Virus record (IMG/VR): IMGVR_UViG_3300014697_000001
Span: 186,516-250,515 of that record
Source: a virus
Lineage: Duplodnaviria > Caudoviricetes
Strand: one strand, 5' to 3'
Length of the DNA stretch: 64,000 bases
Below are positions 54,781 to 59,250 of the stretch, one piece after another. The notes below the pieces were generated by a model, which ran no database searches, was not told where the DNA came from, and worked only from the letters and a program-made list of their open reading frames with translations. Each line of letters starts with the position of its first letter. Within the stretch, counting starts at the first letter, position 1. The position numbers were made by a program, and so were the translations under genes.

Positions 54781-55182
54781 ATGAACACTACCGCTTCCAA
54801 GCAAACCCCCGCCCAGGGGCTGCATCAATTACGTCAACAGTCACTGCGCATGCTTTTCAATTTCGCTGAATCCACCCAGGCCGTCGCGCGACATAATTGG
54901 GTCAATCCAGATAAGCGTAGCCGCGCCATCAGTTTGGTGGGCTACATCAAGCGTGACCTTGAGGAGTACAAGCGCCGCCTGGATCGTATTGTCAATAAGA
55001 CCGATAGCCTGTCCGGTAAAGTACTGGCACACCCTCACCATCCTGAACTGCTTCAGCTCGGGGGCGAATACCTGAGCTTCATCGACGACGCGACTGCTGT
55101 CATCACACCCCTGATCGGCGAGTTGACCGAACTGCTTTACGATGAACTCGACACCTCTCAGACCACCGCTACGGCCATTTAA
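54781..55182 (+). CDS. Hypothetical helical protein
   Basis: 133 aa, AGGGGA RBS, TATG motifs upstream. Confidence 0.75.
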   Translation: MNTTASKQTPAQGLHQLRQQSLRMLFNFAESTQAVARHNWVNPDKRSRAISLVGYIKRDLEEYKRRLDRIVNKTDSLSGKVLAHPHHPELLQLGGEYLSFIDDATAVITPLIGELTELLYDELDTSQTTATAI

Positions 55183-55196
55183 GGAACCGAAGAACC

Positions 55197-56780
55197 ATGA
55201 GTGAACAAACGCCAAACGACAACGGCGAGCTGGAAATGATCGACGATGTCGTGGAAGATGGCCTGCCTAGCGTGGATGATAATCCGGACGCCTTCGAAGA
55301 AGCCACCCGTGCCCAGGCTCAGGCCCCTGAAGCTGAACAACAGACTCGTCAAACCGAAGACGATCCTACCCTGTGGGACGAGTTCAACACCCCCAACCCC
55401 CACGTCAATCTGGAGTATCCGGTCTACAAGCGTCAAAAGATCGATCCGGCTAAGCCTGCTATCTCCGCACTTAAAGTCGGTGCTGATGAGATGCTGAAGA
55501 TCCTCGAGGCCCGTGGCCTGACCGACCTCGATGAGGAGCGGGTAGCCAAACTCAGCAAGGAAGAACGCCGACTGGTATTCCTTACCCGAAACCTCAGTTC
55601 GATCTGGCAGGATCTCTACTTCGATGGGATTGACAAGGATGGTGATTGGGGTCAGTACGTCCTTCACAACGAAGCCAAACTGGGCGCCGGCAAGGTACGT
55701 CCCGAAAACATGAAAGACCCCGTCATGGCCATTCGGGCTTCTTTCGGTCAAGGGTCTGTTGTTCAGGTCCCGCTATGGAACACTGGTCTCTGGATCTCGT
55801 TCCGGGCACCAGCCATTCAAGCCCTGTTGGACCTGGATCAACGCATTCGCATGGAGAAGATCACCCTCGGTCGTGCGGCCAACGGCATGTCTTTCTCCAA
55901 CACCGAAGTCTACACTGTTGAGACGTACATGCGCTTCGCACTGGAGCACGTGGTGTCGGTCAACTACCAGTTTGAGACTGGGGATACGGTAGATGAATTG
56001 CTGTCGGTGATCCGTTCCCGTGATTACCAGCAAGTGCTGTGGGGTCTGGTCAGTGCCATGTATCCGGATGGCTACATGTTCCGTCAGCCGTGTGTTGCTG
56101 ACAACTGCAGTCACATCGATGAAATGGTGCTCAACTTTGCCCGTCTGGGTGTCGTTGACCGTGACAAGATCAGTGCCAAGCAAGCGCTGCTGATGGCGTC
56201 GCGTAAAACCAAGCGTGACCGTGCCTGGCTGGAGGAGTACCAAAAGGAATTCAGCTTCTACGAGAAACGCGTAACGCTGAACGATACCCTGACGGCAGTC
56301 CTGCGGGTTCCGACCCTGCAAGACCAGATCACAGCCGGCCACCTCTGGGTCGATGGTATCTCCAAAGCCACCAACGAAGCCTTCGGACATCGTTTGGCGG
56401 AAATGGATCGGGTGCGCCACATCATGCGTTCGGGTGCCATGACCAACTTGCGTCAATACAGTCACTGGGTAGCGCATTTCGAGCACAGCCTTGACCCCGA
56501 CACCGAGCCACGTATCATCGGCGAAGTCGAGGACAAGGACCGTGTACTGGAAATGTTGAGTGAATCGCCCGAGCTGTCCGATAAGCTCAGTACCGAAGTC
56601 ATGACATGGATTCAGAAGTCTACGGTATCCTACGTGGGGCTCCCTAAGATCAAGTGTCCGTCCTGTCAGAAAGATCCGGTGGATGAAACCCATCCTCACC
56701 TGATCCCGCTTGACATAGGTTACATTTTTTTCACCCTAGCCGCGTTCAAGATCAGCCAGGTCGAAGGCGCGGCGGACTGA
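55197..56780 (+). CDS. Conserved phiKZ-like protein, possible baseplate-hub/tail assembly chaperone with Zn site
   Basis: 527 aa, acidic N-terminus, CVADNC and CPSC, AAGGA RBS. Slippery site near the 3' end. Confidence 0.7.
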   Translation: MSEQTPNDNGELEMIDDVVEDGLPSVDDNPDAFEEATRAQAQAPEAEQQTRQTEDDPTLWDEFNTPNPHVNLEYPVYKRQKIDPAKPAISALKVGADEMLKILEARGLTDLDEERVAKLSKEERRLVFLTRNLSSIWQDLYFDGIDKDGDWGQYVLHNEAKLGAGKVRPENMKDPVMAIRASFGQGSVVQVPLWNTGLWISFRAPAIQALLDLDQRIRMEKITLGRAANGMSFSNTEVYTVETYMRFALEHVVSVNYQFETGDTVDELLSVIRSRDYQQVLWGLVSAMYPDGYMFRQPCVADNCSHIDEMVLNFARLGVVDRDKISAKQALLMASRKTKRDRAWLEEYQKEFSFYEKRVTLNDTLTAVLRVPTLQDQITAGHLWVDGISKATNEAFGHRLAEMDRVRHIMRSGAMTNLRQYSHWVAHFEHSLDPDTEPRIIGEVEDKDRVLEMLSESPELSDKLSTEVMTWIQKSTVSYVGLPKIKCPSCQKDPVDETHPHLIPLDIGYIFFTLAAFKISQVEGAAD

Positions 56781-57214
56781 GTCTCCACCATGGGCAGCAC
56801 GTATCCGACCGAGGCTTCGGCATCGAGCGGTTGCTAGATAGAGACACTCTCTCCACACTGGACAAGGAGCTTTCGACGTTTGAAGGTACTTTAGACAGTG
56901 TGGCTGCGCATCTGGTGGTGACGGAGTGCTACGATGAATACTTCGGCATCTATGAGAACAGCAGTCAAGGGAGAAGTCCTTTTGCACTAGCGGCTTTGCA
57001 CGAGCCGGAAGACCTGTCGGCGGTTGATCCGTTTGACACGTACCTGGAACGCTACTTGGCAGCGAACGTCCTCAAGTTCACCGGCATCGACTATGTTACC
57101 TTCATGACCCTCCCCCGTGACCGGGCAGAGGCTATCTTGAAGCGCTGTGATTCGATCTCGATGAAAGAGGATGCAAGCGTAGGGCAGTTGATGGATCAGG
57201 TCGGAATCAAGTGA
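56726..57214 (+). CDS. -1 frame extension of the 527-aa protein (listed ORF 56831..57214)
   Basis: The frame is open from the T-TTT-TTC heptamer at 56726. There is no upstream ATG or clear RBS for independent initiation. Confidence 0.65.
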   Translation, partial: FFHPSRVQDQPGRRRGGLSLHHGQHVSDRGFGIERLLDRDTLSTLDKELSTFEGTLDSVAAHLVVTECYDEYFGIYENSSQGRSPFALAALHEPEDLSAVDPFDTYLERYLAANVLKFTGIDYVTFMTLPRDRAEAILKRCDSISMKEDASVGQLMDQVGIK

Positions 57215-57317
57215 TGCAGAATAGAGGAGGGGCTTAGGCCCCTCTTTCTATTTGATTGGATTGAAATCCTACATTATCAAGTCGACATGTTCGTAAACCA
57301 CTTGAGATACTGCACCC

Positions 57318-58574: not shown

Positions 58575-59008
58575 TTCAAGTCACCAACATCGCCAAGGAC
58601 AAAGTCGGCAGCATCCCCATGGATGCACCGCTGATCAGCATCTCGGATAAGTATTCTTACGGCGCAGCCATCCCCAACGAAAAGAACCGCCCCCTGTTGA
58701 AGCTGGACTTCTTTCCCGGTGATCACATCGATTTCGACAACCGGGACCACTGCATGCGTCCTGAACTCGCCAAGAAGATCTTTGACTTCATGGCTAAACG
58801 TAAGGACGGTGAAGTCGTTTACATTCAGTGTGGTGAAGGTCGTTTTCGTTCTTACACCTTGTGCACGATGCTCGAACATCTACTGTACCCCAGGGTCCGT
58901 CATAACCGCGAGCTGGCCACTGTCAAGCAGGGGAATGAAGATCGGTACACCGCCCGTGAACTGGTCAAGTATTACGAACGACACATTGATGATGGCGAGG
59001 ACTCGTAA
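58571..59008 (+). CDS. Cys-based (CX5R) phosphatase, PTP/DSP-like
   Basis: LISISD, LDF, and P-loop VYIQCGEGRFRS; AAGGAG RBS. Confidence 0.8.
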   Translation: MIQVTNIAKDKVGSIPMDAPLISISDKYSYGAAIPNEKNRPLLKLDFFPGDHIDFDNRDHCMRPELAKKIFDFMAKRKDGEVVYIQCGEGRFRSYTLCTMLEHLLYPRVRHNRELATVKQGNEDRYTARELVKYYERHIDDGEDS

Positions 59009-59027
59009 AAAAGTCCACACGTGAGAT

Positions 59028-59250
59028 AGGGTATGAGAAGTACCCCGATTCCAAGTTTGGAGGGGGTTGTGTCATGGGTGGTGGTGGATAGGGTCTCAGC
59101 ATCCCTGTCAAGGAACTTCCCCCAGGTAGTCACTACTTGCGACACGATCCCCTCCTCCTAACAGGGGGCTCCTTCAGAAGAGCCTATCTACCTCTGCTCG
59201 ACCGTACCCTCCCCGTCGGTACCCATGGTCGACTGTCGAGAGCCCCCGCC
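59028..59250 (+). ncRNA. Candidate structured RNA (unknown family)
   Basis: 15-bp stem 59059-59073/59141-59155 with G-U pairs and nested hairpins; second domain closed by GGGGGCTC/GAGCCCCC. Confidence 0.45.

Follow-up and report, generated by a model that had tools for sequence, protein, structure and literature searches.

Does the DNA that follows a phage gene of 527 codons hold a second gene, or does it hold a second ending for the first? The question is raised by a 64,000-nucleotide stretch of the viral record IMGVR_UViG_3300014697_000001 (positions 186,516 to 250,515; this whole stretch is called the window below), in which an open reading frame (ORF), here named ORF1, reads TAC ATT TTT TTC ACC CTA shortly ahead of its stop codon, and in which the -1 frame is open across the same bases (last upstream stop at 56711-56713, open from 56714 to the TGA at 57212-57214), reading FFHPSRVQDQ and onwards. 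An earlier note on this DNA had proposed that a programmed -1 frameshift on the in-frame heptamer T_TTT_TTC joins ORF1 to the downstream frame, that a stem-loop behind the heptamer takes part, and that the event is of the phage lambda G/GT type and identifies both genes as tail or baseplate assembly chaperones. The coordinates given there all hold (ORF1 of 527 amino acids, heptamer at 56726-56732, -1 frame open to 57214), and the predicted products of 527 and about 672 amino acids are confirmed as well, the longer one being composed of 510 + 162 = 672 residues with the junction ...DIGYIFF/HPSR. Comparison with related genomes makes it highly probable, as far as sequences can tell, that a slip of some kind at the T-run leads to recoding here.

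Conservation of the T-run and of the -1 frame

Taken alone, the single window does not set the site apart, and heptamer, hairpin and open frame are each within chance expectation: the ORFs of the window hold 31 in-frame X_XXY_YYZ heptamers, and an open stretch of 35 codons, as found between the heptamer and the first canonical start codon of the -1 frame, has a probability of about 0.13 given the rate of -1-frame stops in ORF1 (29 in 508 codons). The significance of the site comes instead from its conservation across relatives and from codon usage.

ORF1 matches phrog_4585 and the downstream frame matches phrog_12109, both PHROGs of unknown function, and no Pfam family is matched by either frame. 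Homologues of ORF1 include phiKZ gp77 (PHIKZ077), PhiPA3 gp074, 201phi2-1 gp136, RAY gp267 and Goslar_00081, and tblastn found matches in 253 phage records, including those of SPN3US-like Salmonella, Ralstonia, Vibrio, Aeromonas and Bacillus jumbo phages. The gene upstream of the ORF1 homologue in the nearest GenBank relative encodes a piece of RNA polymerase beta/beta'. From this spread over the family, together with the RNA polymerase neighbour, we assign the window to a genome of the Chimalliviridae (phiKZ-like, nucleus-forming phages) and regard ORF1, called gp77 below after its phiKZ homologue, as a core gene of the whole family. The "gp77" of three papers is a different protein each time (the Goslar capsid decorator, the PCH45 small terminase and a virion RNA polymerase (vRNAP) subunit of PhiPA3) and was set aside.

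Thirty-four loci, about 30 of them distinct, were compared: 17 from annotated phage genomes, three from IMG/VR, three from metagenomes and 11 from contigs that encode homologues with 28-83% identity. Single-protein scans of IMG/VR and of metagenomes yielded the three loci each, and the family was sampled through GenBank records and the encoding contigs. Across the compared loci the identity of ORF1 ranges from 19 to 99%; among them are phiKZ, PhiPA3, 201phi2-1, RAY, Goslar, an SPN3US-like phage and a Bacillus phage, and the hosts or sources span Pseudomonas, Erwinia, Klebsiella, Salmonella, Escherichia, Xanthomonas, Ralstonia, Vibrio, Aeromonas, Bacillus and metagenomic samples.

At all 34 loci a run of six to nine Ts (T6-T9) lies at the same Phe-Phe codons, within the motif [VITLY]-F-F-T-L and 10-25 codons ahead of the ORF1 stop, and from this run the -1 frame is open over 151-175 codons, again at 34 of 34 loci. 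The first Phe codon is TTT in 30 of the 30 distinct loci and the codon before it ends in T in 29 of them, though the residue that it encodes varies (V, I, T, L, Y, F), and the third base of the codon at the second Phe position is free (TTT 16, TTC 12, TTG 1, TTA 1). Hence, the common element is exactly an in-frame T_TTT_TTN (29/30 loci). Codon usage in the window runs the other way: Phe is written TTC 499 times and TTT 221 times (69% TTC), 24 of the 26 FF dipeptides begin with TTC, and T_TTT_TTY is found only at the ORF1 site (1/26).

Of the 30 distinct loci, 18, belonging to distant lineages, have ACC CTA as the six bases past the heptamer (window 56733-56738), and 3 others have ACC CTG or ACC CTT. 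This hexamer, with CTA as its Leu codon, reads T-L in frame 0 and Y/H-P in frame -1; dual coding may explain its retention, or the bases may matter for the slip.

Protein-level conservation in the -1 frame begins ahead of any start codon. The position of the first ATG, GTG or TTG varies from +10 to +89 codons among the loci, and in phiKZ, AgentSmith, RAY and pEa54 the first canonical start falls within the conserved core of the downstream domain. The family-conserved H-[VI]-x4-F-G is upstream of the first start in most loci, and E-x-Y-D-x2-F-G-I is likewise upstream of any start in the same four phages. Moreover, in five distant phages the tblastn alignments start with the very first residue of the -1 frame, and the PHROG profile match reaches 19 positions further towards the N-terminus once the codons upstream of the window's TTG are included. 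The probability that the frame is open from the run to the first start was calculated as 3e-8 for phiKZ, 2e-8 for AgentSmith, 6e-4 for locus L032, 8e-4 for JM-2012, 1.5e-3 for pEa54 and 5e-3 for RAY.

A single-frame fused form was found in none of 54 clustered homologues, all of which are 491-557 amino acids long, which argues that the short form and the frame change are both maintained; a search for longer proteins containing the extension also found none, which is weak evidence. In summary, the slippery run with its open -1 frame at 34 of 34 loci and the conserved downstream residues ahead of any start strongly support recoding of the kind that the earlier note had suggested from one genome, in that the heptamer is kept in the orthologues and most of them give the downstream ORF no ATG or ribosome-binding site of its own.

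Layout of the locus and neighbouring genes

The features of the locus are collected in Table 1.

Table 1. Features in and around ORF1, in window coordinates.
Feature	Position	Strand	Basis
ORF1, zero-frame product of 527 amino acids	55197..56780	+	ORF list/translation
Slippery heptamer T_TTT_TTC (mRNA U_UUU_UUC), codons F511-F512	56726..56732	+	sequence
T7 run enclosing the heptamer	56725..56731	+	sequence
Zero-frame stop TGA ending the short product, 16 codons past the heptamer	56778..56780	+	sequence
-1-frame extension H-P-S-R... to the TGA at 57212-57214; phrog_12109	56732..57214	+	translation, PHROG profile
Hairpin 6 nt 3' of the heptamer, 8-bp outer and 4-bp inner stem; candidate local stimulator	56739..56773	+	RNAfold
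TTG, first canonical start of the -1 frame, 35 codons past the heptamer	56831..56833	+	sequence
Terminator-like GC hairpin with T-rich tail, directly past the -1-frame stop	57224..57247	+	sequence

The stem-loop described in the earlier note was reproduced by RNAfold, with an 8-bp stem (56739-56746/56766-56773) and an inner GAUC/GGUC helix, 6 nt past the heptamer (centroid -18.7 kcal/mol). The TTG at 56831 lies downstream of the conserved H-V-x4-F-G motif and is thus unlikely to mark the true N-terminus of the downstream product. Transcription would be expected to end at the terminator-like hairpin behind the -1 frame.

An ATG in frame 0, 10 nt past the ORF1 stop, opens an ORF (56790-56837) of only 15 codons, in another frame than the downstream domain, and this ORF is not kept in relatives. 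On the other side of ORF1, an ORF of 133 amino acids (54781-55182) ends 14 nt ahead of it, at the position taken by phiKZ gp78, PhiPA3 gp075 and 201phi2-1 gp137; since the same position is occupied in every relative examined, the gp78-gp77 pair is syntenic throughout the family. The gene neighbours in the window and in the 17 annotated relatives are gp78 and gp79 homologues, an RNA polymerase subunit, a helicase and small accessory genes.

Ribosomal or transcriptional slippage

We hold it fairly likely that the event is a -1 ribosomal frameshift at T_TTT_TTC. Most ribosomes would read ATT TTT TTC ACC and stop at 56778-56780, giving the 527-residue protein, while a fraction would slip back by one base with two tRNA-Phe on U_UUU_UUC, both of which would re-pair perfectly with UUU UUU, and would read the -1 frame on to 57214, giving the 672-residue protein across the junction named above. 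The short form ends in a helix of about 16 residues; in the long form this helix would be replaced by a flexible linker and a helical domain (about 140 residues) for which there is no separate start codon. A body of some 510 residues would be common to both proteins, and the efficiency of the slip would set the ratio in which the two are made. The site, the two frames and their conservation are read directly from the genomes; the ribosomal nature of the slip, its efficiency and the function of the products are inferred. For phiKZ the predicted junction peptides are ...TFFYFGGLEVK and, after trypsin, ...TFFYFGGLEVKPDGVVNDLR.

The ribosome is favoured because the loci have an in-frame heptamer in common rather than a minimum run length, because two of the three lineages with only T6 (Vibrio Yong MS32 and Aeromonas D3, the third being PhiPA3) are exactly T_TTT_TTC with no surplus T, and because both tRNA-Phe would be able to re-pair perfectly after the slip. 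Sites of the U_UUU_UUY type with tRNA-Phe are known ribosomal -1 sites, as in P2 E/E+E' at T_TTT_TTG and in T7 gene 10.

Several observations nevertheless weigh against the ribosomal reading. PhiPA3 has the sole imperfect heptamer, G_TTT_TTT. The hairpin in the window is not unusually stable (z = -0.64), with 51 of 200 dinucleotide shuffles equally good; a 5-bp stem GCCGC/GCGGC is kept in 11 close relatives with no compensatory change, in a stretch that codes in two frames, and across 16 genomes no hairpin common to the family was found, the downstream folds differing in place and stability (z from +1.4 to -2.7). A search of Rfam with 56500-57300 returned no family and no frameshift element. 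The role of stimulator that the earlier note had implied for the stem-loop thus finds no backing in either covariation among close relatives or a hairpin shared by the family. Finally, the T7-T8 found in most lineages are lengths at which RNA polymerases can stutter too.

In the alternative of transcriptional slippage, the main rival, which we consider possible but distinctly doubtful, the RNA polymerase stutters on the template A-run and adds one U to part of the transcripts, and these +1U mRNAs encode the 672-residue fusion in a single frame on which the ribosome behaves normally. In the case of middle and late genes, the enzyme would be the non-virion RNA polymerase of the phage. Phages of the phiKZ type transcribe with their own divergent and unusual RNA polymerases, and viral and bacterial polymerases stutter at runs of 7-9, as at the Ebola GP editing site, in Thermus dnaX and in insertion sequence (IS) elements. 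Such slippage would suit an element that is a homopolymer, with seven or eight Ts in most lineages and nine in one, and that has no conserved RNA stimulator in the comparisons or in Rfam. It would also suit the distribution of such runs in the 250,515-bp genome, for which ORFs were called crudely: only two sense-strand runs of at least seven Ts lie within ORFs (about 231 kb of coding sequence), namely the ORF1 run and one other that sits just 7 nt into a called ORF, compared with 11 T or A runs of at least seven in about 19 kb of intergenic DNA (8% of the genome), a near-absence from ORFs that fits error-prone expression of such runs. In contrast, the three lineages with T6 only are short for efficient stuttering, two of them being exactly T_TTT_TTC, and what 29 of 30 loci have in common is the in-frame heptamer and not a run of at least seven. 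The two kinds of slippage have the same protein outcome, and sequence alone does not separate them.

With regard to A/T homopolymers in general, runs of at least seven are strongly depleted from coding sequence in this genome: the ORFs have 4 in about 231 kb and the intergenic DNA has 11 in about 19 kb, many of the intergenic runs being terminator tails. The longest homopolymer within an ORF of the genome lies outside the window, where a T9 on the + strand (G000:C1:59052-59060) falls inside a minus-strand ORF (58668-59082) and is thus an A9 on the sense strand near the start of the gene, another candidate slippage site.

Separate genes and DNA-level explanations

If there were no recoding at all, the downstream ORF would be a separate gene, expressed from a non-canonical or weak start or by termination-reinitiation, and the T-run would just encode Phe-Phe. 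We judge this improbable. It agrees with current annotation, as none of the 17 GenBank records has a joined coding sequence at the gp77 locus and all draw two separate genes; the open frame upstream of the TTG in the window is not significant, as stated above; and a possible start lies near the ORF1 stop in RP31 (an ATG overlapping the stop), LucasX (GTG), RSF1 (GTG) and 201phi2-1 (TTG), which counts against recoding as the only route to the downstream product and makes some independent initiation possible in these four phages. However, a separate gene does not account for synonymous positions of the run that are fixed in 29-30 of 30 loci contrary to codon bias, for a start position that is not conserved and lies within the conserved domain in the four phages named above, or for a -1 frame whose openness is highly improbable in the AT-rich members phiKZ and AgentSmith. 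The distance from run to stop is constant, whereas annotated gene lengths vary widely. Nor does the FF motif itself demand a T-run, since the homologous FF near the C-terminus of T4 gp26 is written TTC TTT despite an AT-rich genome.

The annotations of the downstream gene (phiKZ gp76.4, PhiPA3 gp073, RAY gp266) disagree with one another: phiKZ gp76.4 begins 87 codons past the run, at an ATG that 219 nt of supposedly intergenic DNA separate from the gp77 stop, and others have assorted TTG or GTG starts. In the compared loci, phiKZ gp76.4 (L008:2478-2981), AgentSmith_12 (L014:2802-3035) and D3 gp201 (L017:2901-3110) are cut to the last 70-80 codons, and RAY gp266 (L011:2643-3191) is drawn as overlapping gp267 by 135 nt.

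An origin at the DNA level would mean an error of sequencing or assembly in a homopolymer, a pseudogene, or a hypermutable tract by which populations alternate between a fused and a split form. We find it scarcely credible: homopolymers are indeed error-prone in sequencing and replication and the run length differs among lineages (T6-T9), but the same frame relation is present in 34 of 34 independent assemblies made with different technologies, a fused ORF in 0 of 54 clustered homologues, and both frames are conserved at the protein level; sequencing error, pseudogene and phase variation were rejected on these 34 consistent loci.

Structure and possible function of the two products

The confident AlphaFold model of ORF1 (predicted local distance difference test (pLDDT) 79, predicted template modelling score (pTM) 0.78) places the slip site at the start of the last helix of the protein, residues 507-526. 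In the model of the extension (pLDDT 63), residues 1-20 are disordered and form a low-confidence linker, and helices are predicted over residues 33-159. Four cysteines are invariant in the ORF1 family (C299, C304, C487 and C490).

Searches with Pfam and NCBIfam on 28 ORF1 members, and with Pfam on 26 extension members, gave scattered chance matches only. Solved structures yielded no match that could be used: PDB sequence profiles returned no hit, Foldseek found none in PDB at E <= 0.001, and the best match of a wide VIA-align search had a Z of 5.1, which is within noise. When Foldseek was run against the predicted viral structures of BFVD, the matches that followed the family itself were many proteins of about 250 amino acids (E 9e-5 to 2e-2, target-normalised template modelling score about 0.5), with names such as "baseplate hub assembly protein, T4-like", "hub subunit" and "hub assembly chaperone". 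In hhalign comparisons of ORF1 with T4 gp26, the C-terminal block V-P-x-K-C-P-x-C...T-H-x-H-[LV]-I aligned with 52% identity over 29 columns (E 2e-4, probability 46%), and a second, collinear block had a probability of 17%; gp51 matched ORF1 at CPxC alone. The extension matched T4 gp51/gp26 in its E-x-Y-D-x2-F-G region with a probability below 1%, which is a lead only. The hidden Markov model of PF12322 (T4_baseplate) had no match at E <= 1 in 28 family members, and none at E <= 10 in a search of the genome, in which the controls were silent too, so that this search has little power. Judging from this weak but repeated similarity to T4 gp26/gp51 in model and motif, the ORF1 body probably serves in the assembly of the baseplate hub or tail without becoming part of the virion. 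The earlier note's assignment to tail or baseplate assembly chaperones is thus plausible through the resemblance to T4 gp26/gp51, and not on the G/GT grounds from which it had been drawn.

A non-virion role is in keeping with two observations: in 201phi2-1 a mass-spectrometry note is attached to the neighbouring gp138 but to neither gp136 nor gp135, and the labels gp81 and gp82 are absent from the Goslar virion structure preprint, assuming that gp numbers follow locus tags. On the other hand, the Churi homologue of phiKZ gp077 is listed among the proteins of early-infection proteomics (PMC11849849), and this detection does not sit easily with a late assembly role. We offer it only tentatively that the gp77 frameshift might be the Chimalliviridae counterpart of the near-universal tail-assembly-chaperone frameshift, built on a scaffold of the T4 gp26/gp51 type, or alternatively a case of programmed transcript editing by the phage RNA polymerase.

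Novelty and significance

Full-text searches on frameshifting in phiKZ, Chimalliviridae and jumbo phages, on gp77/gp077 and on tail assembly chaperones found no description of the gp77 event, the coverage of these searches being incomplete, and the word "frameshift" is absent from the core-genome paper and from the 2025 Annual Review on nucleus-forming phages. This agrees with the earlier note, which knew of no report of the event in phiKZ-like phages, and with the 17 GenBank records, which have no joined coding sequence. The comparison of sequences strongly supports a recoding event of a known type, in a new and family-wide instance, that affects a core gene of jumbo phages used as models.

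The Chimalliviridae, including phiKZ, PhiPA3, 201phi2-1, Goslar, RAY and SPN3US-like phages, are leading models of phage cell biology and candidates for therapy, and most of the roughly 70 core genes that they share still have no known function. If the recoding is real, every member of the family makes, from one of these core genes, a further protein about 670-690 residues long. This long protein would be missing from the 17 annotations, and hence from the proteome databases and the transposon sequencing (Tn-seq) or interaction maps built on them, and the downstream "gene" would be mis-delimited in all 17 records examined. The prediction can be put to a direct test on proteomics and ribosome-profiling data that already exist. 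It would also give a handle on a poorly understood assembly step in these phages, and it bears on recoding in phages whose mRNAs come from non-canonical RNA polymerases and have to leave a nucleus-like shell. Should the hub-assembly reading be true, a fixed ratio of short to long protein would meter how nucleus-forming jumbo phages assemble the baseplate hub or tape measure, and two chaperone systems so far held to be unrelated, lambda G/GT and T4 gp26/gp51, would be linked. Should the slip be made by the phage RNA polymerase, no earlier case of programmed transcript editing would be known for such enzymes.

Comparison with known systems

As regards the recoding itself, a parallel is found in the tau/gamma system of E. 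coli dnaX (-1 frameshift at A_AAA_AAG), which like gp77 has a homopolymeric heptamer and two products with a long common N-terminal body in a set ratio. In some bacteria transcriptional slippage gives the same outcome for dnaX, which is the same ambiguity as at gp77. However, the shifted frame of dnaX stops at once and makes the shorter protein, whereas that of gp77 would make the longer one, and dnaX has a strong upstream Shine-Dalgarno-like element and a downstream hairpin, while no such conserved elements were found at gp77.

T4 gene 26 (L034:1803-2429, minus strand) carries the pattern K-C-P-x-C...T-H-x-H-[LV]-I...F-F-x-L as the gp77 family does. The protein ends in ...EFFELL, with Phe-Phe at the same position as in gp77, and the gene is annotated with two nested products too, gp26 and 26'. 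The second product of gene 26 arises by internal initiation, whereas that of gp77 would arise by a change of frame; gp77 is 2.5 times as long as T4 gp26, and the FF of gp26, unlike that of gp77, lacks a slippery run. T4 gene 25 lies in the -1 frame of gene 26 and overlaps its stop by one base. A gp26-gp25 fusion by frameshift was considered and rejected, as TTC TTT offers no slippery run.

The tail assembly chaperone (TAC) systems of lambda G/GT, P2 E/E+E' (T_TTT_TTG) and Mu gp41/42 likewise use a -1 slip at X_XXY_YYZ near the 3' end of a non-virion assembly gene, and the P2 heptamer is nearly the same U-rich sequence as that of gp77. In these systems, as predicted for gp77, one start leads to a short protein and to a C-terminally extended one. 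No separate start serves the extension, and the change of frame persists even where sequences have diverged past recognition. On other counts the membership in the lambda G/GT family that the earlier note had implied finds no support: ORF1 has about 530 residues and the chaperones about 100-150 (ORF1 is about four times the size of G), neither ORF1 nor the extension has a TAC match in Pfam, and in the window and the 17 annotated relatives gp77 does not lie between the tail-tube and tape-measure genes. ESM Atlas scores of the extension against TAC clusters (0.77-0.80) are at chance level, and the Z of 4.7 obtained for YqbN (3klu) is within noise. What gp77 and G/GT would have in common is the logic of the arrangement, in which a non-virion assembly factor has a single start but two C-termini, made in a fixed ratio.

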